From the NCBI GenBank assembly GCA_964484035.1, contig CAZAEG010000385.1, positions 1 through 30,587 of the forward strand: a stretch of 30,587 nucleotides of DNA, read 5' to 3'. Positions within the stretch are counted from its first letter, which is position 1; each line of letters opens with the position of its first letter. Positions 1 to 11,720 of the stretch are shown piece by piece. Under the pieces are notes generated by a model. It made no database searches and was not told where the DNA came from. It was given only the letters and a program-made list of their open reading frames with translations. The position numbers were made by a program, and so were the translations under genes. Source of the stretch: an uncultured Enterobacteriaceae bacterium (lineage in GTDB: Bacteria; Pseudomonadota; Gammaproteobacteria; Burkholderiales; SG8-39).

Positions 1-872
1 CTGCCTTCGACTTTCTCGCTCAGCCGGCGCAACGAGGCCGAGAGCACGTTCAACTCGCCCAGCAGTCGCTCCAGCTCCGGCAGCGCCTCCCCGGTGAAGC
101 GCTGCAGGTCGGCGCCCAGCGTATCGACGGTCTTGCCCGCGTTGGCGCTGGCGGTGGCCGTCACGTCGCTCATGCGCTCGAACGCTTCGGCGCTGCGGCC
201 CACCTGGGCCACGACCGGGCCGAGCTGGGCGCTCGCGCGGGCGCTGTTGTCGAAGGTGCGCGCGGCATTGGCGAGCGCGGCGTCGATCGCGCCCTGGTTC
301 GCGGCGAGCGTCCTGGCAACGGCCGACAGGTCGGCCAGCGTGCTCTTGAACGACGCAAGATTGTCGTCGCTGAGGATCTTGTTGATGGTCTCCGAGGTGG
401 CGTCGAGCTTCGCGAGCACGGTGGTCAGCACGTTCTCCAGGCGCGCAGCCAGCGAGGGCTTGGTGCGGATCACCGGCAGCTCGCCCGGCGCCGACGCGCG
501 CAACGGCGGCGAGGCGAGGGTGCCGCCGTCCAGTTCGACGTAGGCGATGCCGGTGAGCCCCTGGGTCTTGAGCACCGCCTCGGTGTCTTCCTTGATCGGC
601 GTGCCGTGCTCGATCGAGAACAGGAGGCGCACCTGCTCCGGGTTTTCCGGATCGAGCCGGATGGCGCGCACCCTGCCCACGTCGACGCCGCGGTACTTGA
701 CCGGCGCATTGACATTGAGGCCCGCCACCGATTCCCCGACCAGGGCGAGGTACAGGGTGGTCTTTTCCTGGAATCCGCCGCCGCTTGCCAGCCACAGGAC
801 GCCCGCGACCAGCGCGGCCCCCAGCGCGAGCACGAAGGCGCCGACCAGCGCGAAGTTCACTTTGGTTTCCAT
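1..872 (-). CDS. mlaD: MCE/MlaD-family substrate-binding protein (3' end runs off the window)
   Basis: Manual translation from ATG at 872: METKVNFALVGAFVLALGAALVAGVLWLASGG...ESVAGLNVNAPVKYRGVDVGRV...LKTQGLTGIAYVEL. N-terminal TM helix plus MCE motifs (GL...V.YRGV.VG.V; GLTG..YVEL). Start overlaps the mlaF stop. Not in the ORF track. Confidence 0.9.
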   Translation of the reverse strand, partial: METKVNFALVGAFVLALGAALVAGVLWLASGGGFQEKTTLYLALVGESVAGLNVNAPVKYRGVDVGRVRAIRLDPENPEQVRLLFSIEHGTPIKEDTEAVLKTQGLTGIAYVELDGGTLASPPLRASAPGELPVIRTKPSLAARLENVLTTVLAKLDATSETINKILSDDNLASFKSTLADLSAVARTLAANQGAIDAALANAARTFDNSARASAQLGPVVAQVGRSAEAFERMSDVTATASANAGKTVDTLGADLQRFTGEALPELERLLGELNVLSASLRRLSEKVEG

Positions 873-1630
873 GCCGCCGCCCTCCCGCGCGGGCCGTCGA
901 AGTACTGGCGGATGTCCGGATGCTCCAGCCGCGACAGTTCGGCCATCGAGCCGATGCCCTGCACCTTGCCCTGGCCGAGCACCGCGACGCGGTCGGCGAC
1001 CTGCCACAGGAGGTCGAGGTCGTGGGTGATCATGACGACCGTCAGGCCGTAGAGACTGCGCAGCCTGAGTACCAGCTGGTCGACGCCGGCGGCGCTGACC
1101 GGGTCGAGCCCGGCCGTCGGCTCGTCCAGGAACAGCAGTTCGGGATCGAGCGCCAGCGCGCGCGCAAGCGACGCTCGCTTGAGCATGCCACCGCTCAGTT
1201 CGGCCGGATACCGGTTGCCGGTCTCCGGCTCGAGGCCGGCGAGCGCGATCTTCCAGGCCGCGATCTCGTCGATCGACGCTTCCGGCAGCGTGGAATGCTC
1301 GCGCAGCGGCAGGCCGACGTTCTCGCGCACATCCAGCGAACCGAACAACCCGCCGTGCTGGAACATCACCCCGAGGCGCAGCCGCAAGGCTTGCGCGCTC
1401 GCCGCGTCGAGCGATTGCAGGTCCGCGCCCAGCACTTCGATCGAGCCCGCATCCGGGCGATGCAGCAGGATCATCTCGCGCAGCAGCGTGGATTTGCCCG
1501 AGCCGCTGCCGCCGATGAGCGCGAAGATCTCGCCGCGGCGCACTTCGAGGTCCAGCCCCGCATGCACCACCTGCTCGCCGAAGCGGGTCGACAGGTTGCG
1601 CACTTCGATGACAGTGTCGGCGTGCGCCAT
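857..1630 (-). CDS. mlaF: ABC transporter ATP-binding protein, MlaF/Mkl family
   Basis: Walker A GGSGSGKS, signature LSGGM, Walker B LLFLDEP, H-loop ITHD; lies between MlaE-like and MCE genes. Confidence 0.92.
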   Translation of the reverse strand: MAHADTVIEVRNLSTRFGEQVVHAGLDLEVRRGEIFALIGGSGSGKSTLLREMILLHRPDAGSIEVLGADLQSLDAASAQALRLRLGVMFQHGGLFGSLDVRENVGLPLREHSTLPEASIDEIAAWKIALAGLEPETGNRYPAELSGGMLKRASLARALALDPELLFLDEPTAGLDPVSAAGVDQLVLRLRSLYGLTVVMITHDLDLLWQVADRVAVLGQGKVQGIGSMAELSRLEHPDIRQYFDGPRGRAAAWKPK

Positions 1631-1631
1631 G

Positions 1632-2753
1632 TCAAAGGCCCAGCACGCTGAACAGGATGGAGAACAGCGCGTCGGCCACGATCACGAGGAAGATCGCCTG
1701 CACCACGCTGCGCGTGGTGTGGCGGCCGACGCTGTCGGCGCCGCCGCGGGTGCGAAAGCCCTGGAAACAACCGATCAGCGCGATGATCAGCGCGAACACG
1801 GGCGCCTTGCCGAGGCCGATCGCGTATGCCGTGACGCTCACCGCCTTGGTGAAGCGATCCAGGAAATCCTCGAAGCCCACACCCAGCTGGGCGCGCGCCA
1901 TGACCATGCCGCCGAACACGCCCAGCACGTCGGCGAAGAACGTCAGCAGCGGCAGCACCACCAGCAGCGCGAGAACTTTGGGCAGCACCAGCACCTCGAG
2001 GGGGGCGATGCCCAGGGTGCGCATGGCGTCGATCTCCTCGGTGACCGACATGGTGCCGATCTGCGCGGCATAGGCCGAGCCCGAGCGCCCGGCGACGATG
2101 ATGGCCGTCATCAGCGGGGCGAATTCGCGCAGCATCGACAGGCCCACCAGGTCGGCGACGAAGATGTTGGCGCCAAACTGCCTGAGCTGGTCGGCGGCCT
2201 GGTAGGCGATGACGACGCCCATCAGGAAGGAGAGCAGGCCGATGATCGGCAGCGCGTCGACGCCGGCGCTGCGGATGTTGTGCAGGATCGGCCGCCAGCG
2301 CATGCGCGCCGGCTGGGCGATGCTGCCGGCGAGCGCGGCGGCGGCCTCGCCGATGAAGACGAGGAGCGCGAAGGCTTCCTCGCCCGCGGCGCATGCCGCC
2401 CGGCCGGCGCGCGCCAGGGTGCCAGGGGCCGGTGGCGCAGGCGCCGGGGCGCCGGGGCGCTGCTCCAGAAGCTCGAGCAATCCGGCAAACCGGGGACTCC
2501 AGCCTCGCAGGGTCACGGCGTGCCCCTCTGCGCGCAGGCGCTGCAGCAGCCCCTGCAGCAGCCAGACGCCGACCGTGTCCAGGCGCTCGACCCCGGCGCC
2601 GTCCACGACGATCCCGGCCCGCGCGGGCACCTTGAGCGAATCGAACCGCCGCTCGAGGGCGCCTGTCCCGAGCACGGTCCAGCAACCGGACAGCGCGAAC
2701 TCCCCGGGCGCGGGCTGGGCGAGCGCAGCGGGTGCGACCGACGGGAAATTCAT
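1632..2753 (-). CDS. mlaE: MlaE-family ABC permease with N-terminal STAS-like domain
   Basis: MlaE motifs [28 protein letters not shown] and [11 protein letters not shown]; N-terminal STAS-like segment [17 protein letters not shown]. Start placed at ATG 2753 (MNFPSV); the ORF track extends to 2804. Confidence 0.88.
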
Positions 2754-2825
2754 GCGCAGCCTGCAGGCTGGACCAATTCCCCGCGCCGGTATGTACGGGA
2801 CCATACAGAGCCGGCCCTTGCGCCC

Positions 2826-2926
2826 CTACACTGCCGAGCGCCGGGCGTTGGCGAGCGTCAGGCGCTCGACCAGGATCTCCATGAAGGCACGGTCGAACTT
2901 GTGGCGGCAGGTGTCGGAGGCCTGCG
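2826..2926 (-). repeat. Orphan copy of the last 32 codons plus stop of the Ser/Thr kinase gene (direct repeat, copy 1)
   Basis: 2841-2926 matches 6292-6377 at 84/86 nt (constant offset 3451). Translates [32 protein letters not shown] versus ...[20 protein letters not shown] in the intact gene, with the stop at the same position. Confidence 0.95.
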
Positions 2927-3093
2927 GAGTGAACAACCCCTACAGGGGCAACGTGCTCGCCGATCCCGAGATCCGCGAGGGCATCAAGCGCTACGCCAAC
3001 TGGCCCACCATCCCGCAGCTCTACGTCAACGGCGGGTTCGTCGGCGGCGCGGACATCTTGAAAGAGATGTACCAGTCGGGGGAACTGCAATAG
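2920..3093 (+). pseudogene. grxD: 3' half of monothiol glutaredoxin (Grx4/GrxD family), truncated
   Basis: ACGV...[50 protein letters not shown] matches the GrxD C-terminal half (WPTIPQL, GG.D motifs). The N-terminal CGFS active site and a native start are missing. Confidence 0.9.
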
Positions 3094-3103
3094 CTGCTGG
3101 AAG

Positions 3104-3262
3104 GGCTTCGCCAGGATCTACTGCGACCATTGCCGGCACGGCTTCATCCTGGCCTTCTCGTGCAAGGCGAGGTACTTCTGCCCAAGCTGCCACCGAAAGA
3201 GCGTGCCGGCGTATGCCGAATGGGTGGAAGCCAGCGTGCTCCCTCCGGTACCGCATCGGCAA
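3104..3262 (+). mobile_element. Internal fragment of an IS91-family (rolling-circle, HUH) transposase, zinc-binding domain
   Basis: Manual translation GFARIYCDHCRHGFILAFSCKARYFCPSCHRKSVPAYAEWVEASVLPPVPHRQ, i.e. GFAR..CxxC....LAFSCK.R.FCPSC...W.....L..VPHRQ, typical of the IS91/ISCR N-terminal Zn domain. No start codon and no downstream HUH/Tyr domain. Confidence 0.85.
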
Positions 3263-3374
3263 TCGCCGCGGTCGCAGGCACCTCAAAGCCGGTTAGCTCG
3301 CCGAGCTGAGCGGCGGCCGGCACCGCGGCCAGCGCCACGAGCACGGCGCCCGTGCCGGTGAGCAGCATTTGTGT

Positions 3375-3403
3375 TTTGGCGCACAGACCGGGCTTGCGCC
3401 AAA
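3375..3403. promoter_or_regulatory. Perfect 9 bp inverted repeat TTTGGCGCA-N11-TGCGCCAAA upstream of the dehydrogenase
   Basis: Read directly from the sequence; ends 29 bp before ATG 3433. Function unknown. Confidence 0.4.
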
Positions 3404-3432
3404 GCAGATCTTGCCCCGTCGACGCACACGAT

Positions 3433-4749
3433 ATGCGGTTGTCCATACTGGCCGGTTTGCTGATCCTGCATCTCGCCGGCTGCGGCGAAATGGCCACATT
3501 GCCGGAGAGCGCCGGAATCGGGCCGCGGCCGACCTTGCCGCCGCCGAACCCGACACTCATACCGTCGGTCCACATCGCCCCGGCCAAGGGCTGGCCGTAC
3601 GGGGCGACGCCGGTGGCTGCGGCCGGACTTGCAGTGAACGCCTACGCGGCCGGGCTCGATCACCCCCGCTGGCTCCATGTCCTGCCCAACGGGGATGTAC
3701 TGGTTGCCGAAACCAATGGGCCGCCCAGGCCGGACGACACGGCCGGCATCAAGGGCTGGGTGACGAAGCTGCTGAGGAAACGTGCAGGCGCGGGAGGTGC
3801 AAGCGCCAACCGCATCACGCTGCTGCGCGACATGGACGGGGACGGCATCGCGGAGATGCGCACCGTGTTCCTGGCCGGACTGACCTCGCCTTTCGGCATG
3901 GCGCTCGTCGGCAGCGACCTGTATGTCGCCAACACCGATTCGCTCGTGCGCTTTCCCTACAAAGCGGGCGACAGGCAGATCACCGCGCCCGGCGTAAAAG
4001 TCGTCGATCTGCCCGCGGGCACGATCAACCACCACTGGACCAAGAATGTCATTGCCAGCCGCGACGGTTCGCGACTCTATGTCACGGTAGGCTCGAACAG
4101 CAATGTGGGCGAAAACGGCATGCACAACGAGGTCAACCGCGCCGCCATCCTGGAGGTCGAACCCGCGACCGGGCGCGCGCGGCTGTTCGCCTCGGGTTTG
4201 CGCAATCCGAACGGCATGGACTGGCAGCCGCAAAGCGGCGCGCTCTGGACCGCGGTCAATGAACGCGACGAGCTCGGCAGCGACCTGGTGCCCGACTACA
4301 TGACCTCGGTGCAGGATGGCGCCTTCTACGGCTGGCCGTACAGCTATTACGGCCAGCACGTCGATGTGCGGGTGCAGCCCCCGCGTCCCGACCTGGTCGC
4401 TCGTGCCATTGCGCCCGACTATGCGCTCGGCACGCATACCGCCCCGCTCGGGCTGGTGTTCTATCGCGGCAGTCTTTTGCCGAAGCGCTATGCCGGCGGG
4501 GCGTTCATCGGCCAGCACGGCTCGTGGAATCGCAAACCGCGCAGCGGCTACAAGGTCATATTCGTATCGTTTGCCGATGGACGCCCGGTCGGGGTTCCCG
4601 AGGACGTGCTGACCGGCTTTGTCGACGCGAAGGGTGATGCTCTGGGCCGCCCCGTGGGCGTGGCGGTGGACCGTGCAGGCGCCCTGCTCGTCGCGGACGA
4701 CGTCGGCAATGTCATCTGGCGTGTGAGGCCGGCTGCGGCGAAGCGGTAA
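3433..4749 (+). CDS. PQQ-dependent sugar / L-sorbosone dehydrogenase family lipoprotein (beta-propeller)
   Basis: Lipoprotein signal [17 protein letters not shown]; motifs [67 protein letters not shown]. Start moved from 3352 to ATG 3433. Confidence 0.85.
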
Positions 4750-5016
4750 TTTCCCTCATCGACTGGCCCCGGGGAATGTTGGGGTCTGCGCACCGTGAGA
4801 TCAGGTGCCAGTCCGGCGCTTGCCCGTTCTTTCCCCGCGACGCTCCGATTGACGCGGTGCACGCACGGGATACGCCACCTCGCGAACCTTTTCACGACCC
4901 GCGCTCGCTTCTGTTTGTGCACTCGACGGGAATCGCCGCGGATTGAGCAGTTTGCGCGGCGCGCGCGCCTTGGTGGAGCTTTTGGGCTGATTCATGAGGG
5001 CCTCGAGAGGCGTCTT

Positions 5017-5250
5017 TCAGGCGCGGTCGCGCAGTTCCTTCACGCCCGCCATCTCGGCGCAGTGATCGCAGCAGTACATCCGGCCGTCCTTCTCCAGGCC
5101 GTGGCCGATCATGCGCACGCCGCATTGCACGCAGGTTGGCGCGAGCGTATGGACCGCGCATTCGAAGCTGTCGAACGTATGGGTCTTGCCTCGCGCGATA
5201 ACCTGAAAGCTTTTGTCGTAGTCATTGCCGCACGCGTCGCATTTCGCCAT
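5017..5250 (-). CDS. 77 aa Cys/His-rich putative metal-binding protein
   Basis: MAKCDACGNDYDKSFQVIARGKTHTFDSFECAVHTLAPTCVQCGVRMIGHGLEKDGRMYCCDHCAEMAGVKELRDRA; 8 Cys; GGAG RBS upstream of ATG 5250. Confidence 0.8.
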   Translation of the reverse strand: MAKCDACGNDYDKSFQVIARGKTHTFDSFECAVHTLAPTCVQCGVRMIGHGLEKDGRMYCCDHCAEMAGVKELRDRA

Positions 5251-5386
5251 CGCGAACTCCAGAGGACGGTTGCCCGTTGCCGCTTTGATATTCTTCTCCG
5301 GCCGGGTCGCGGTCTGTGCGCGGGCGCACCACCGGTCGCGCTGGCAGGGCCTGCAGCTTCGCTGCTGGCCGTATGATCCGGGTTGC

Positions 5387-6229
5387 ATGAAATCCGCTCT
5401 CGCGCCCCTCGAGACGCTGTACGAGGCAAAACGCGGCCGGTCGCTGCCGCTGCCTCCCGGGCTGGCGCGCCTGTATGGACGACTGCGCATGCCCCTCGCG
5501 CGTGCACGGCCGCACGTCATCAGCAATTTCGTGACCTCGCTGGACGGCGTCGTTTCGCTCAATGAGAAGGGACACGCCAGCGGCGGCGACATCAGCGGAT
5601 TCAGCGCCCAAGACCGCATGGTGATGGGCCTGTTGCGCGCCATCGCAGACGTGGTGATCGTCGGCGCAGGCACGCTGGGCGTCGACCGGCATCACGTCTG
5701 GACGGCCGAGCGCATTTTCCCCGGCCTCGACGGAGAATACCGCCGGCTGCGCAAGGCGCTGGGCAGGCGCGATCTGCCGCTGATGGGGGTCGTCAGCGGC
5801 AGCGGCCGGCTCGATCTGCGCCTGCCCGTGTTTACATCCGGCGAGTTGCGCTCGCTGGTCGTGACGAGCGCCGCGGGGGCAAGGCGGTTGCGCAGATCAA
5901 AGGTGCCCGCATCGGTCGAGATCCGCGCAGTGCATGGCGGCCGCGCGATACGTGCGAGGTCCATCCTCGACCAGGTGCGCCGGGTGAGTGCCGGCAAGCT
6001 GATTCTGGTCGAAGGCGGGCCGCGCTTGCTCGGCGACTTTTTCGCGGATCGCCTCCTCGACGAGCAGTTCCTGACCCTCGCGCCGCAGATTGCCGGGCGC
6101 AAGGCGGGCGATCGGCGGCTCGGCCTGGTCATGGGCCGGACTTTCGCGCCGCAGAGTCCGCTATGGGGACGCTTGATCGACGTGCGGCGCGGCAAAGTCC
6201 ATCTGTTCCTGCGGTATTCGTTTCACTGA
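5387..6229 (+). CDS. Standalone RibD C-terminal / dihydrofolate-reductase-fold reductase
   Basis: NFVTSLDG, LLRAIADVVIVGAGT, LVEGGPRLLGDF and LDEQFLTLAPQIAG motifs; no deaminase domain. Start set at ATG 5387 (MKSAL). Confidence 0.82.
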   Translation: MKSALAPLETLYEAKRGRSLPLPPGLARLYGRLRMPLARARPHVISNFVTSLDGVVSLNEKGHASGGDISGFSAQDRMVMGLLRAIADVVIVGAGTLGVDRHHVWTAERIFPGLDGEYRRLRKALGRRDLPLMGVVSGSGRLDLRLPVFTSGELRSLVVTSAAGARRLRRSKVPASVEIRAVHGGRAIRARSILDQVRRVSAGKLILVEGGPRLLGDFFADRLLDEQFLTLAPQIAGRKAGDRRLGLVMGRTFAPQSPLWGRLIDVRRGKVHLFLRYSFH

Positions 6230-6276
6230 AGTCCTTGCGCATCACCACTTCCTTGGAGAATGGCGGCGCATGGCGC

Positions 6277-6377
6277 TCACACGCCCGCGAGCCGGGCGTT
6301 GGCGAGCGTCAGGCGCTCGACCAGGATCTCCAGGAAGGCGCGGTCGAACTTGTGGCGGCAGGTGTCGGAGGCCTGCG
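6277..6377 (-). repeat. Direct repeat copy 2 (3' end of the intact kinase gene)
   Basis: Matches 2826-2926; see copy 1. Confidence 0.95.
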
Positions 6378-7572
6378 CGAGCTTGGCCGTCGGCACCGAG
6401 ATGATCTTCGATTCGTCCATCACCGTGACGTCGGCGCCGCGCAGTTGCTCGTCCTTCGACAGGTAGGCCATCTCGCCGAAGCATTCGCCGGTGTGCAGGA
6501 TGTTGAGCAGCTTGCCCTTGCGCGTCACGCGCACCTGGCCGTCGGCGAGGATGCAGAAGAAGCTGCCCGGCTCGCCTTCCTTCATCAGCAGCTCGCCCAC
6601 CGCCGCGGTGCGCCAGTTGGAGATGCGCGCCACCTCCCACAGCTCGGCGTCGGTGAAGTTGGTGAAGAAGGGGAGCCGGCGCAGCGACTCGAACTTGTCG
6701 GAGTCGGCGAACGTCTCCTTCCTGCCGCCCAGGCCCTCGTTCCTGAACACCTCCGCCAGGTCGAGCGAGAAGTCCTCCCAGGCCGCGTAGCGCTGCGCCA
6801 GGTCCTTGGCCATGGCGCGCTTGACGATGGCGTCGAGCGCCGCGGGGATCTGCGGGCGGTAGGACGAGGGCGGCTGCGGCTCGACGTTGGCGATCTGGTA
6901 GATGAGGCTGAAGTTGTTGGTGGCCTGGAACGGCAGCCGCCCGGCGAGCAGCTGGTACATGACCACGCCGAGCGAGTAGATGTCGGTGCGGTGGTCGAGC
7001 GCGTGCTCCTTCACCTGCTCGGGCGACATGTAGGCGGGCGAGCCGATGGCCGAGACCTGCGTGATGTCGCCGCTGGCGATGAGCGCGGCGCCGAAATCCG
7101 ACACCTTGACGTCGGTCTCGCCCGTGAAGAGGATGTTCGCGGGCTTCAGGTCGCGGTGCGTGATGCCCATCTTGTGCGCGAATTCCAGCGCGCGCGTGCA
7201 CTTGAAGATGATCTCCACCACGCGGTCGATGGGCAGCAGGTCCTGCGCGTCGCCGTGGCGCTCGAGCGTCCCGCCGTCGACGTACTCCATGACGATGTAC
7301 TGCTGGCGGTCGTCGGCCACCGCGTCGTAGATCTGGCAGATGTGCGGATGCTGCAGCTTGCCGGCGAGCGAAGCCTCGGTGATGAAGAGCTTGCGGTACA
7401 GCCGCCCCTTGTCCTTGCTCTCGAAGGCCTCCGGCATCACCAGCTTGACGGCGACGTTGCGGCTGTAGAACGGATCGTTGCACAGGTAGACGACGCTGGT
7501 CGCGCCGCGGCCGATCTCCTGCAGCACCGGGTACTTGCCGATGCGCTCGGGGACCGCGGCGGGCTCGTTCAT
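6277..7572 (-). CDS. Hanks-type Ser/Thr protein kinase with C-terminal cyclic-nucleotide-binding (CNB) domain, 431 aa
   Basis: [41 protein letters not shown]; C-terminal LRRLPFF...EGEPG.FF.IL.G.V.V...[10 protein letters not shown]....RGADV. ATG 7570-7572 overlaps the argH stop (ATGA). Confidence 0.93.
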
Positions 7573-8993
7573 GTCCTGGCGCGCCGGCCGCGCGCGCGCG
7601 CCACCGCTGCCTTGACGCGCTTCGGGGCGGTGCCGCCGACGTGGTCGCGCGCCGCCACCGAGCCCTCCAGGCTGAGGCAGTCGTAGACGTCGTCGCCGAT
7701 GGCGCCGGAAAAGCGCTTGAGCACCGCGAGCGGCAGCCCGGAGAGGTCGCAGCCCAGGCCTTCCGCCTCGCGCACCGCGCGCGCCACGATGCCGTGCGCG
7801 TCGCGGAACGCGACGCCCTTCCTCACCAGGTAGTCGGCGAGGTCGGTGGCGGTGGCGAAGCCCTCGAGCGCGGCGGCGCGCATCGCGTCGGGCAGCGGCT
7901 CGATGCCCGGCACCATTTCCGCGAACACGGCGAGCGTGTCCTTCAGGGTGTCGACCGCATCGAACAGCGGCTCCTTGTCCTCCTGGTTGTCCTTGTTGTA
8001 GGCGAGGGGCTGACCCTTCATCAGCACGAGCAGAGAAACCAGCGCGCCGATGACGCGCGCGCTCTTGCCGCGCGCGAGCTCGGGCACGTCGGGGTTCTTC
8101 TTCTGCGGCATGATCGAGCTGCCGGTGGTGAAGCGATCGGGCAGGCGCACGAAGCCGAAGCGCGGGCTCATCCACAGCACCAGCTCCTCGGCGAAGCGCG
8201 ACAGGTGCACCATGGCGAGCGCGGCGTGCGCGCAGAACTCGATGGCGAAGTCGCGATCCGACACCGCGTCCATCGAATTGGCGCATACGCCGTCGAACCC
8301 GAGCTCGCGCGCCACGCGCGCGCGGTCGATGGGGAAGGGGGTGCCGGCGAGCGCCGCGGCACCGAGCGGCAGCAGGTTGACGCGCCGCCGGCAGCCGGCG
8401 AAGCGCTGCCGGTCGCGCTCCAGCATCTCGACGTAGGCCATCAGGTGGTGGCCGAAGGTCACGGGCTGCGCCACCTGCAGGTGCGTGAAGCCCGGCATCA
8501 CGAGGGCGGCGTGGCGCTCGGCCTGCGCCAGCAGCGCCTCCTGCAGCCTGGCGAGGAGCGCGTCAACGGCGTCGATCTCGTCGCGCAGCCACAGCCGCAC
8601 GTCGGTCGCCACCTGGTCGTTCCTCGAGCGCGCGGTGTGCAGGCGCTTGCCCGCCTCGCCCACCCGCGCGATCAGGCGCCGCTCGATGTTCGTGTGCACG
8701 TCCTCGGCCTCGAGCGACCACGGGAAGCGTCCGGTCTCGATCTCCTTCGCGATCAGCGCCAGGCCGCGCTCGATCTCGGCGCGGTGGGCGCGCGAGATCA
8801 CGCCGCAGGCGGCGAGCATGCGCGCGTGGGCGAGCGAGGCCGAGATGTCGTGCCGCGCGAGGCGCCGGTCGAAGCCCACCGACGCCGTATAGCGCTGCAC
8901 CAGGTCGCTGACCGGCTCGACGAACCGGTCGGACCACGGTGCCGGCGTGCCGGCCTTACTGCGCGACTTCCGCTTGGTGCGAGGAGGGGCCAT
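7569..8993 (-). CDS. argH: Argininosuccinate lyase
   Basis: [60 protein letters not shown]. Start at ATG 8993. Confidence 0.97.
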
Positions 8994-9030
8994 GGGGCAT
9001 ACTTGGATCGCGGCGCGCCGCGCTATGCCA

Positions 9031-10038
9031 ATGAGTATAAAGCAAAACTTCACAGCCGACGCCCTGCCGGACTTCCGTAACCTGGGCGTCGTGGCGCGCA
9101 TTCTGATCGGCGTCAACGCGCTCGCGTTCGCGGCGGTGCTCGCCGCGGTGCCGGGCTGGGGCGCGGCGCTCGAGCGATTTCTCCTGGTGGCGGCGCGCCT
9201 CGAGCCGGCGCTCGCCGTGACGCTCGTCGTGCTGTACGCGCTCTCGAGCGCGCTGGCGCGGCTCGCGTACTGGCAGGGCGGCGCGGCGGTGGTGGCGCTC
9301 GCCCTCGCGGTGAGCGGCACGCTGCACGTGGCGAGCGCGCCGGCGGGCGATGGCGCCGCGGGCCTCGCGCGCACGCTCGTGCTCGCGACGATCGCCGCGC
9401 TGCTGCTGCTCGCCTACCTGCGCCTGCTCACGCGCGCCTATTCGCCCGCGCTGGCCGAAGCGCGGCTGCAGGCGCTGCAGTCGCGCATCCGGCCGCATTT
9501 CCTGTTCAACAGCCTGAACGCCGTGCTCTCGCTCATCCGCCGCGACCCGCGCCGCGCCGAGCGCGCGCTCGAGGACCTCGCGGACCTGTTCCGCGTGCTG
9601 ATGCAGGACAACCGCAGCTTCGTGGCGCTCGGCGACGAGATCTCGCTGCTCGAGCGCTACGCGAGCCTCGAGCAGCTGCGCCTGGGCGAGCGCCTGAAGG
9701 TGGTGTGGGAGCTGCAAGGCGCGCCGCGCGACGCCCTGCTGCCGCCGATGATCCTGCAGCCGCTGCTCGAGAACGCGATCTACCACGGCGTCGAGCCGGG
9801 CGCGGGGGAAGGGCGCGTGGTGGTGCATATCGAGCGGCGCGGCGCGCGCGTCTTCGCGCGCATCGAGAACCCGTACCTCGAGGAGCATGCGCACCGCGCC
9901 GGCAACCGCATGGCGCTGGCGAACATCCGCGAGCGGCTGCAGCTCTTCTTCGACGTCGAGGCGCGCATCGACATGCGCGTGGAGAACGATCGCTACGTGG
10001 TGGAAATCGCGATGCCGTACCGGCCGGCGAAGGCCTAG
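9031..10038 (+). CDS. algZ: LytS-type sensor histidine kinase, AlgZ/FimS-like
   Basis: TM N-terminus, [16 protein letters not shown]-box, [16 protein letters not shown]-box, degenerate G-boxes (ENP...[13 protein letters not shown]); argH<>algZ-algR-hemC-hemD synteny. Start is uncertain (8992, 9025 or 9031). Confidence 0.85.
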
Positions 10039-10043
10039 CGGCG

Positions 10044-10796
10044 ATGCTGCGCGTGTTCATCGCCGACGACGAGACGCCCGCGCGCGAGCGCCTGAAGGAG
10101 CTGCTCGCCGACATCGCCGCCGAGTTGCCCACCGAGGTGGTGGGCGAGGCGGCGAGCGGCCTCGACGCCGTGGCGCAGTTGCCGGCGAGCCGCGCCCAGG
10201 TGCTGCTGCTCGACATCGAGATGCCGGGCATGCGCGGCCTGGAGGTGGCGCGCCACCTCGCCGGGCTGGAGCTCGCGCCCGCGGTGGTGTTCGTCACCGC
10301 GCACGAGCGCCATGCGGTGGAGGCCTTCGAGCTGAACGCGCTGGACTACCTGTTGAAGCCGGTGCGCGCCGAGCGCCTCGCCGCGGCGCTGAAGAAGGCG
10401 AGCGCGGGCGGGCCGCCGGCGCGCGAGCAGCTGGCGCGAGCGGCCGCGCAGGCGCGCGAATACCTCTCGGTGACCGAGCGCAACCGCATCCACCTCGTGC
10501 TGGTGCGCGATGTCGTCTACCTGCGCGCGGAGCTGAAGTACGTGACCCTGCGCACGCGCGCGGGCGAGCACCTGATCGAGGAGTCGCTGATGGCGCTCGA
10601 GCGCGAGTTCGCGCAAGCGTTCGTGCGCGTGCACCGCAACTGCCTGGTGGCGAGAAGCGCGGTGCGCGGCTTCGAGCGCGCGGCCGACGGCGGCGACGAG
10701 CCGCACTGGAACGTGGTGCTCGAGGGCGTGCCCGAGCGCCTGCCGGTGAGCCGCCGCCAGTGGGCCGAGGTGCGGCTGCTCGTGAAGGAGGGCTGA
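10044..10796 (+). CDS. algR: LytTR-family response regulator, AlgR-like
   Basis: Receiver motifs IADDE, LLDIEMP, FVTAH, DYLLKP; LytTR motifs AELKYV, FVRVHRNCLV, LPVSRR. Confidence 0.9.
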   Translation: MLRVFIADDETPARERLKELLADIAAELPTEVVGEAASGLDAVAQLPASRAQVLLLDIEMPGMRGLEVARHLAGLELAPAVVFVTAHERHAVEAFELNALDYLLKPVRAERLAAALKKASAGGPPAREQLARAAAQAREYLSVTERNRIHLVLVRDVVYLRAELKYVTLRTRAGEHLIEESLMALEREFAQAFVRVHRNCLVARSAVRGFERAADGGDEPHWNVVLEGVPERLPVSRRQWAEVRLLVKEG

Positions 10797-11720
10797 ATGC
10801 GCGCGCGCCTGACGATCGCCACGCGCCGCAGCCGGCTCGCCTTGTGGCAGGCCGGGCACGTCAAGGCGCGGCTCGAGGCCTGCCACCCCGGCACCGCGGT
10901 CGCGCTGCTCCCCCTGTCGACGCGCGGCGACGAGCTGCTGGAGGCGCGCCTCGACAAGGTCGGCGGCAAGGGCCTGTTCGTGAAGGAGCTGGAGCAGGCC
11001 ATGGCCGACGGCCGCGCCGACCTCGCGGTACACTCCATGAAGGACGTGCCGGCGGCGCTGCCCGCGGGCTTCGTGCTCGCCGCCATCCTCGAGCGCGAGG
11101 ACGCGCGCGACGCGCTGGTCAGCAGCGCGTACGCGGACCTCGCGGCGCTGCCGCCAGGCGCGCGCGTCGGCACCTCGAGCCTGCGCCGCGCGGCGCAGGT
11201 CGCCGCCCGCCATCCGCAGCTGCGGCTGCTTACGCTGCGCGGCAACGTCGAGACGCGCCTCGCGAAGCTCGACCGCGGCGAGTACGACGCCATCCTGCTC
11301 GCGGCCGCGGGGCTGAAGCGCCTCGGGCTCGAGGCGCGCATCCGGTGCTGCCTGCCGGTGGAGGAGAGCCTGCCCGCGCCCGGGCAGGCGGCGCTCGGCA
11401 TCGAATGCCTCGCGGCGCGCGCGGAGATCCGCGCGCTGCTCGAGCCGCTCGCGCACGCGGCCAGCAGCGACTGCGTGCGCGCGGAGCGCGCCGTGAGCCT
11501 CGCCCTCGGCGGCAGCTGCACGATCCCGCTCGGCGCCTACGCCGAGCGCTGCGGCGCGCGCCTGCGGCTGCGCGCCCTGGTGGCGGCGCCCGACGGCACG
11601 CGCCTGGCGCAGGCCGACTGCGAGGGCGCCGCCGACGACCCGGAGGCGCTGGGCGCGCAGGCGGCGCGGGTGCTGCGCGCGCAGGGCGCCGACGAGATCC
11701 TGGCGGCGATCGCCGCGTGA
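10797..11720 (+). CDS. hemC: Hydroxymethylbilane synthase (porphobilinogen deaminase)
   Basis: [48 protein letters not shown]. Confidence 0.97.

Follow-up and report, generated by a model that had tools for sequence, protein, structure and literature searches.

How a block of about 3.45 kb came to lie between a protein kinase gene and the mla lipid-transport operon, with the 3' end of the kinase gene present on both of its sides, is the question raised by a 30,587-nt stretch of DNA from an uncultured soil betaproteobacterium of the Burkholderiales lineage SG8-39 (contig CAZAEG010000385.1, assembly GCA_964484035.1). This whole stretch is referred to as the window. Its G+C content is about 70%, and real genes were picked out by their G+C content at third codon positions (GC3). 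Read along the minus strand, the order is argH, kinase, 3.45 kb of intervening DNA, a 101-nt copy of the kinase tail, a 72-nt spacer, STAS-mlaE, mlaF and mlaD. A preliminary description, made from the sequence alone, interpreted the 3.45-kb islet as an integrative element that had entered the kinase gene and restored its end. In our analysis the islet has the appearance of a scar that ordinary recombination with a related genome has left behind, and not that of a self-mobile element. We consider it probable that the segment was imported from another version of this locus, that homology in the kinase gene anchored it and that a microhomology join closed it, with the tail duplicated and the kinase left intact. 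The affected gene, its displaced end and its upstream neighbour are:

6277..7572, minus strand: intact gene for a Ser/Thr kinase of 431 amino acids with a C-terminal cNMP-binding domain (Pfam Pkinase 8.5e-53, cNMP_binding 2e-13); its last 101 nt (6277-6377) are the second repeat copy.
2826..2926, minus strand: displaced copy of the kinase 3' end, 33 codons plus TAG (repeat search and reading of the sequence), which keeps Met and Ser as in orthologues.
7569..9011, minus strand: argH (Pfam Lyase_1, ASL_C2), the conserved upstream neighbour of the kinase, which it precedes in about 25 of the 80 related loci compared below.

One direct repeat is outstanding in the window. Its copies, at 2828-2926 and 6279-6377, are 99 nt long and 93/99 identical (94%), and their starts are 3451 nt apart; with stop codons included they cover 101 nt each (2826-2926 and 6277-6377), both on the minus strand. 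In a BLAST comparison of the window with itself this pair scored 152 bits, while the best self-match in 30 dinucleotide shuffles of the window averaged 37 bits and did not exceed 43. The 86-nt core (2841-2926 and 6292-6377) contains 2 differences (84/86 identical): CGT/CGC at 2889/6340 is silent, and ATG to CTG at 2882/6333 gives Met in the remnant and Leu in the full gene. The last codons are diverged, RRSAV-TAG in the remnant and RLAGV-TGA in the full kinase, with the stops in register. All these features of the repeat agree with the preliminary description. It had also proposed to look at which C-terminus, LAGV or LSAV/RSAV, is carried by orthologues. These end in LSGV, and some ancestral states are retained in either copy, the full one with LAGV and Leu as well as the remnant with RSAV and Met. 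Over its full length, the kinase shares 95% amino acid identity with its counterpart in L001 and 93% with that in L081 (L-numbers denote related loci, and X-numbers sequencing runs). An RSAV-like tail next to the mlaE flank was also found in run X10.

The state of the locus before insertion was approached through 80 kinase loci from species-representative genomes of GTDB and, separately, through a scan of metagenomes with the MlaE protein. Genes of the mla operon were found near the kinase in none of the 80 species-representative loci. On this set alone the kinase would never be followed by mlaE, which would refute the ancestral order kinase-mlaE-mlaF-mlaD, all co-directional, put forward in the preliminary description; the metagenome scan overturned this impression. 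The 14-kb metagenome contig L081, which is free of the islet, carries argH, the kinase (93% amino acid identity), mlaE (89%) and mlaF. Another islet-free metagenome contig, L082, carries the kinase tail, mlaE, mlaF, mlaD and, after about 650 nt, a convergent full-length grx gene, the protein of which is a Grx4 glutaredoxin (TIGR00365, above cut-off). Therefore, in the clade of the window itself the mla operon lies between kinase and grx, and kinase-mlaE is the pre-insertion state. The proposed ancestral order is corroborated as well by the spacer downstream of the remnant, which is orthologous to the kinase-mlaE spacer of L081, and by the equal depth of the two arms of an empty site in run X1, described below.

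A convergent grx follows the kinase in 16/80 loci, with a spacer of 33 bp to 5.7 kb. The content of this kinase-to-grx interval differs across relatives, and consists of nothing, a MetE-like gene, a vapC scrap, a second kinase, or mlaEFD. The second kinase, a tandem paralogue with 55-59% amino acid identity to the query, is placed between the first kinase and grx in L010, L011, L012, L014, L020, L021 and L029, and can be read as a further sign of a variable interval. In addition, 150-nt sliding identity places argH nearer to L081 and the adjacent kinase slightly nearer to L001. This is a soft shift with no sharp breakpoint, which hints at older recombination tracts across the locus and would be consistent with a mosaic.

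Within the islet, the following features were recognised:

2917..3114, plus strand: grx', a 5'-truncated pseudogene of a Grx4-family monothiol glutaredoxin, about codons 42-107 or the C-terminal ~60% (Pfam Glutaredoxin 6e-9; aligned with grx of L082, L052 and L002).
3107..3268, plus strand: internal fragment of 54 codons (162 nt) of an IS91-family transposase zinc-binding domain (Pfam Zn_Tnp_IS91 2e-10, profile positions 35-85 of 90).
3433..4749, plus strand: intact gene for a pyrroloquinoline quinone (PQQ)-dependent sugar (sorbosone/glucose) dehydrogenase with a lipoprotein-type signal (Pfam GSDH; GC3 0.82).
5017..5250, minus strand: gene for a Cys-rich zinc-ribbon or metallothionein-like protein of 77 amino acids (weak Pfam Metallothio_Pro and Zn_ribbon matches, below cut-off; GC3 0.82).
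5387..6229, plus strand: gene for a RibD_C-type protein of the pyrimidine-reductase family (Pfam RibD_C 2e-16; NCBIfam pyrimidine reductase family below cut-off).
6228..6276, minus strand: 49 nt after the stop of the full kinase copy, leftover chromosomal context of a different locus type (alignments with relatives).

The grx pseudogene (2917-3114), the IS91 fragment (3107-3268) and the nature of the 49 nt after the full-copy stop, which are chromosomal context and not cargo, had been missed in the preliminary description. On the kinase side, positions 6259-6276 are kinase-downstream spacer, matching 16/18 of the nucleotides after the kinase stop in L001, and no other relative matches there. 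The neighbouring 31 nt (6228-6258) represent a vapC-like scrap that, in contigs of X1 and X4, runs on into L001-like sequence. L001, which has the closest relative of the kinase, contains a C-terminal fragment of VapC (PIN toxin) directly after it (10430-11032, 9e-11). The X1 and X4 contigs join the scrap of the window to the same gene as in L001, there with a different upstream sequence. On the mla side, grx' faces the full kinase in the same orientation as the convergent grx of the 16 relatives. It is interrupted by an in-frame TAG (3091-3093), where relatives have AAG, and homology to grx goes on beyond this stop (LLEGLRQ). Alignments with relatives indicate that the islet is bounded by the two extremities of a kinase-to-grx interval of the 'other' type, with spacer and vapC scrap beside the kinase and grx facing it. 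A replacement end, as supposed in the preliminary description, fits this pattern: the tail of the full-length kinase and its L001-like downstream spacer look supplied by incoming DNA.

The three intact genes of the islet have a GC3 of 0.82, compared with 0.98 in the kinase, 0.95 in argH and 0.89-0.91 in mlaE and mlaF, and the lower GC3 between the repeat copies, previously an impression by eye, is in this way borne out by computation (0.82 vs 0.89-0.98). The best non-self homologues of the dehydrogenase are 88-89% identical and belong to Betaproteobacteria, in which they occupy unrelated contexts (L161-L163), and no source locus of the cargo was found. A homologue with 64-69% amino acid identity is located directly upstream of mlaE, and divergent from it, in one more distant relative (L086, 8553-9959) and 7 kb from mla in another (L092, 14613-15920); this proximity may be a coincidence or a recurrent association. 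Divergent from the dehydrogenase gene of the window, a short minus-strand frame (3270-3371) with a signal-peptide-like start ends abruptly where the IS91 fragment stops, and is probably the 5' stub of the original neighbour of the dehydrogenase. Among plasmids, a near-identity search with the islet yielded only ~76% matches to sorbosone dehydrogenases, the junction 31-mer was not present in viral contigs, and exact-product look-ups for the kinase, mlaF, dehydrogenase and RibD_C proteins found no record. No tRNA or tmRNA was found, nor any sigma-70-like promoter around the junctions, where terminator-like sites were no more frequent than expected by chance.

The inner boundary of the islet coincides with a short sequence common to both partners of the join:

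2918..2926, no strand assigned: AGGCCTGCG, the 9-nt microhomology at the join of kinase tail and grx (alignment of native grx with antisense kinase).

Native grx of L052 and L002 reads CAGGTGCTGCAGGCCTGCGG, and the antisense kinase tail CAGGTGTCGGAGGCCTGCGC; 16/19 positions are identical, 9 of them in an exact run (AGGCCTGCG). The switch from kinase to grx falls exactly at this 9-mer, which occurs only 3 times in the window. The preliminary description had placed the insertion at GCCTGCG in the kinase tail, and the boundary is indeed there, more exactly at AGGCCTGCG. Further inside, grx' and the IS91 fragment are fused on the 8-nt TTCGCCAG (3107-3114), common to the grx 3' end (GGGCTTCGCCAGCAGG) and to IS91 (GGGTTCGCCAGGATC). 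Contigs of X1 and X5 hold the missing upstream part of the IS91 sequence (...FLACGDPQHG), joined exactly at 3107. Judged by these alignments, both the kinase|grx and the grx|IS91 joins are microhomology scars and not element termini. Homology on the other side of the insert is extended: the kinase segment 6361-6633 is identical to that of the empty-site strain in X1, and relatives share 93-95% of kinase amino acids.

Linkage of the islet to its flanks was followed in sequencing runs, in all cases through Logan contigs built with k=31, which cannot phase the 82-99-nt repeat where both copies are kept. Run X1 contains a strain in which the kinase segment 6361-6633 is identical (0 differences) at 58x, and its mlaE flank is joined directly to the kinase tail at 55x. 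The same depth of both arms (~55x) points to a near-identical empty-site strain in this run. The islet interior (2997 to ~5600) is exact in X1 but reaches 8-12x only; neither islet-end junction was detected there, and the RibD_C-side arm was not seen. The kinase|grx join was found as exact contigs in X2, X10, X24, X25 and X26, and the join of the RibD_C flank to the tail in X2, X3, X10, X24, X25 and X26. Junctions of the islet are thus shared by at least six independent runs from soil and sediment, which derive from several separate studies.

Run X5 is decisive for linkage. One of its contigs (1465 nt) connects the mlaE flank (2788-2828), via a tail stub of ~10 nt and ~40 nt of grx', with 4430-~5803. 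In another (1193 nt), 485 nt of the RibD_C side are followed by the tail and then by 621 nt of kinase. The lineage in X5 is without the remnant repeat and without 3089-4429; repeat collapse is therefore not at issue, and the islet is physically located between kinase and mlaE. These contigs bear on the suspicion that the locus is an assembly artefact, in which an empty-site chromosome and a separate molecule with the shared 99 nt were threaded together. The difference in X1 between the empty-site strain (~55x) and the islet sequence (8-12x) is in line with such an artefact, and so is the finding that no indexed run has more than 53% of the words of the remnant-plus-junction stretch (2780-2990). 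It is contradicted by single contigs of X5 in which the islet interior is continuous with the mlaE flank and the kinase body with the islet, and by recurrence of the junctions in six or more runs from different studies. Furthermore, a 3.45-kb molecule without a replication gene could not reach a chromosome-like depth, and the depth of the islet in X2 is 20x vs 27x. An artefact is thus extremely improbable, and a mis-join of two strains, which the preliminary description had named as a way in which the repeat could be spurious, is opposed by the same X5 contigs and recurrent junctions.

The islet of X2 and X5 differs by ~3-4% from that of the window, and the two tail copies in X2 differ at one position only (6295). 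Deletion variants of the islet were observed as well, comprising 34 bp replaced by G (6238-6271, X10 and X26), 1341 bp (3089-4429, X5 and X25) and ~208 bp (~2839-3046, X5). The last one removes the remnant repeat, which makes loss of the islet by repeat recombination impossible in that variant. Breakpoints of these later deletions in X5, X25, X10 and X26 show short or no homology. The insertion is real, widespread, old enough to have diversified, and decaying.

Coexistence of empty and occupied sites in strains with identical kinase sequence could also suggest that the 3451-bp unit, or its deleted form of 2.1 kb, is an active cassette which is integrated, excised and tandemly amplified via the 99-nt repeat, in mixed populations with empty, single-copy and multi-copy sites. 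Near homogenisation of the tail copies in X2 would agree with this, as would the presence of both reciprocal pairings of the repeat as contigs: RibD_C flank, tail and grx' in X25 (319 nt, circle-type pairing), and mlaE flank and kinase in X3 (empty-type). These contigs have a depth of 3-7x and were built with k=31 across a longer repeat, so that collapse suffices to explain them. Low-depth contigs of this kind cannot phase the repeat, and some lineages have already lost one repeat copy, which leaves an active cassette distinctly unlikely. A free circle or a tandem array was considered on the basis of the 319-nt contig of X25 and of arms missing in X24; it was rejected as unproven, since X25 contains the kinase body with a coverage gap.

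The same pair of contigs, mlaE flank-kinase in X3 and RibD_C flank-grx' in X25, could be expected from a site-specific integrative islet, which would use the kinase 3' end as attB and supply a replacement end as e14 does at icd, its integrase being lost or acting in trans. The insert lies between direct repeats of a gene 3' end, the gene has been kept intact and relatives show an empty site, all of which accord with integration. Nevertheless, Pfam searches of all islet open reading frames and of the high-GC3 frames annotated across the 30-kb window gave no integrase or excisionase, and the preliminary description had rightly pointed out that an integrase is lacking. Both islet ends are fragments of chromosomal synteny, not as element-specific arms, and the inner boundary coincides with the grx microhomology. 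The reciprocal contigs are explained by a collapsed 82-99-nt repeat at 3-7x and k=31, and the kinase body is present in X25. Moreover, the islet has no near matches in plasmids or viral contigs. We consider site-specific integration quite improbable, and would regard the kinase tail as an anchor of homology sooner than as an attachment (att) site. An integrative element with its attachment site, as the preliminary description had it, does not hold up: the ends seem to be kinase-to-grx fragments of a related genome, the two internal joins are microhomologies, the sole mobility gene is a 162-nt IS91 fragment, and no circle was demonstrated.

That fragment raises the possibility of a decayed IS91/ISCR-type unit. 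Overrunning rolling-circle transposition would have produced a circle composed of transposase, cargo and neighbouring chromosomal sequence with a kinase tail, the circle would have been rescued by homologous recombination, and the transposase would later have decayed to 162 nt. An IS91-family zinc-domain fragment does lie inside the islet, with fuller copies in X1 and X5, and the cargo is bounded by a partial duplication of a resident segment, as predicted by the published model (PMC7707992). However, the fragment is internal, and the N-terminal 34 profile positions and everything beyond codon ~54 are missing. Only positions 35-85 of the 90-position N-terminal zinc domain are present and the catalytic domain is not, which falls short of an intact HUH (Y2) transposase. 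The join with grx is inside the open reading frame, on the 8-nt microhomology and not at an element end, and the variants of X5 and X25 are without the fragment and retain the insertion. A motif of oriIS type was not found in the window at up to 3 mismatches, although this is a weak test. A transposition unit of this kind is unlikely, and is nevertheless an explanation to which we assign some weight.

Finally, the islet could have arisen in situ, by tandem duplication of the interval from kinase codon -33 to mid-grx (with mlaEFD), followed by replacement of the mla genes of the first copy with cargo. A join of grx-internal to kinase-internal sequence corresponds to the b|a form of tandem-duplication junctions, and the distance at which grx lies downstream of the kinase in L082, ~3.6 kb, is close to the length of the 3451-bp unit. 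Divergence of grx' is difficult to reconcile with this scenario. A grx contig with an L082-type downstream flank in X2 is ~84% identical to grx' over 2927-3026, that is, ~16% diverged, whereas the tail copies differ by 1-6%; this contrast favours import from another lineage over a recent duplication in situ. Besides, the spacer of the first copy is L001-like and not of the empty-site type (E-type), at least two further events with breakpoints exactly at the kinase stop would be needed, and the second tail copy is followed by mlaE and not by a second cargo copy. In-situ origin is accordingly very improbable.

Import from a related genome, which we prefer, can be outlined as follows. The pre-insertion chromosome would have had the order argH-kinase-mlaE-mlaF-mlaD-(~650 nt)-convergent grx, and the donor would have been a closely related genome in which another spacer and variable cargo separate the kinase from convergent grx. 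At the time of transfer, the donor interval would have contained the vapC scrap, the three lower-GC3 genes and a decayed IS91 sequence fused to the grx 3' end. The incoming DNA would be anchored through homologous pairing of RecA type within the kinase, and its far end, inside grx, would be joined illegitimately to the recipient kinase tail at the 9-bp AGGCCTGCG. This may have occurred in one step, by homology-facilitated illegitimate recombination, which would be the simplest history, or through circularisation of the fragment at the 9-bp microhomology and a subsequent single Campbell-type crossover in the 99-nt tail, with an identical product. The expected product is an intact kinase with incoming tail and spacer, 3.35 kb of inserted DNA, and the last 33 codons of the recipient gene as a dead copy before mlaE. 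The mla spacer would remain untouched, and no dedicated recombinase or att site would be involved. The tail is present twice, with no loss in the recipient, because the join site lies 99 nt upstream of the homology end. Since a normal exchange through the kinase and grx flanks would delete mlaEFD, retention of the operon may be the reason why the aberrant product survived. A GC3 of 0.82, the L001-type spacer and the divergence of grx' support, at the sequence level, a foreign origin. What the data show directly is the tail repeat, the empty site and the linkage of the integrated islet, together with its pseudogenes, the microhomologies and a later decay by further deletions; the donor, the order of events and the choice between the two routes are inferred.

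Several observations weigh against this origin. A donor with kinase, L001-like spacer, cargo genes and intact grx was not recovered in any genome, and the sole hint of it is a unitig adjacency in X1, in which a grx of full-length type is followed by exact 2997-3133. In X1, X2 and X3 the tail beside the mlaE flank is of the LAGV type, not of the RSAV type as in the window; therefore, gene conversion, reversion by repeat recombination, or later replacement of the mla side by DNA of another strain would have to be assumed in some lineages. By the spacers alone, the remnant would be the original copy. Natural competence of the host, uptake of the DNA and RecA dependence stand as a proposal. In addition, the IS91 fragment may leave scope for a transposon-assisted step, and the k=31 contigs on which all run evidence is based do not phase the 99-nt repeat in strains with two copies.

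The remaining features of the window, on the mla side of the islet and beyond argH, are:

2754..2825, minus strand: kinase-mlaE spacer of the empty-site type, kept beside the remnant (near base-for-base alignment with the L081 spacer, GTACGGTCCCGTACATACCGGCGCGGGGAAT.GGTCCAGCCTGCAGGCTGC.CATGAATT).
1632..2804, minus strand: STAS-MlaE permease (Pfam MlaE 1e-79 and STAS_2; NCBIfam TIGR00056 above cut-off; alignments with L081 and L082), given as the longest open reading frame; the conserved start is probably the ATG at 2753.
857..1630, minus strand: mlaF-like ABC ATPase (Pfam ABC_tran 2e-29), which comes after mlaE in 70+ related loci.
3..854, minus strand: mlaD-like gene that leaves the window at its left edge (Pfam MlaD 2e-19).
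8947-30587: LytS-type histidine kinase, LytTR regulator, hemC, hemX, coproporphyrinogen oxidase, purH, dusB, FAD monooxygenase, pepP, APH-family kinase, lptD, surA, ksgA and TPR protein.

The region 8947-30587 is ordinary core chromosome without mobility genes. Directly 3' of the kinase stop in L081 (~9957-9990) there is a GC-rich hairpin of ~30 nt (GGTGGGCCCATGGCCCACC) which is absent beside the remnant of the window. The rest of the L081 spacer up to mlaE is almost invariant, and suggests a conserved regulatory site for mlaE.

The locus offers a natural example of a small gene cluster entering a core operon region without mobile-element machinery. Such an entry would require homology on one conserved flank and a 9-bp microhomology, together with selection for retention of both the kinase and the mla lipid-transport operon. 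For programs that search for genomic islands, it shows that a direct repeat of a gene 3' end together with an empty site does not alone amount to an integrase-type element or a new att site. There is also a small practical consequence: the genes acquired by this Burkholderiales-like lineage from soil are those for a PQQ sugar dehydrogenase, a small zinc protein and a RibD_C reductase, and the transcriptional link between kinase and mlaEFD is now broken by 3.45 kb. The value of the locus is modest, residing mainly in a well-documented natural case and in the caution it advises for island prediction.

Among known systems, the arrangement most reminiscent of the duplicated kinase end is that of e14 and phage 21 at icd in E. 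coli, in which icd and the C-terminal pseudogene icdC flank the prophage (PMC13626634). In both cases the 3' end of a coding gene is duplicated, the functional gene ends in element-side sequence, a displaced C-terminal pseudogene is found at the far end, and loss of the insert would give a chimeric but intact gene. While e14 has its own integrase and excises on SOS induction, the islet is without a recombinase and its ends are synteny fragments.

According to the published model, ISCR1 units of complex class 1 integrons are formed by aberrant rolling-circle transposition into a circle that is inserted by homologous recombination, with duplication of the 3'-conserved segment (PMC7707992). The islet resembles them in combining cargo and IS91-family transposase sequence with a partial direct duplication of a resident conserved segment, and in invoking homologous recombination without an att reaction. 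It differs in having only a 162-nt internal transposase fragment, with no oriIS or terIS found and with a transposase join that is a deletion scar. Its cargo does not consist of resistance genes, and the duplication concerns the end of a kinase gene of the chromosome.

Homology-facilitated illegitimate recombination, or insertion of foreign DNA with one-sided homology, has been described for naturally transformable bacteria. It shares with the islet a long homologous anchor on one side, here the kinase, a short GC-rich microhomology join on the other, here 9 nt, a related donor, and no need of a dedicated recombinase. In the islet, by contrast, the join is upstream of the anchor end, which duplicates 99 nt and leaves no deletion in the recipient, and the process is read from sequence.

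The kind of event, a homology-anchored and microhomology-closed insertion in a variable interval between core genes, is already known, and this case is a new example of it. As in variable hotspot intervals between core genes, the kinase-to-grx interval varies in cargo among relatives. The difference is that a clean swap from flank to flank, which would remove mlaEFD, did not take place here; the far end would have been resolved illegitimately inside the near flank, and both cargos were therefore retained.

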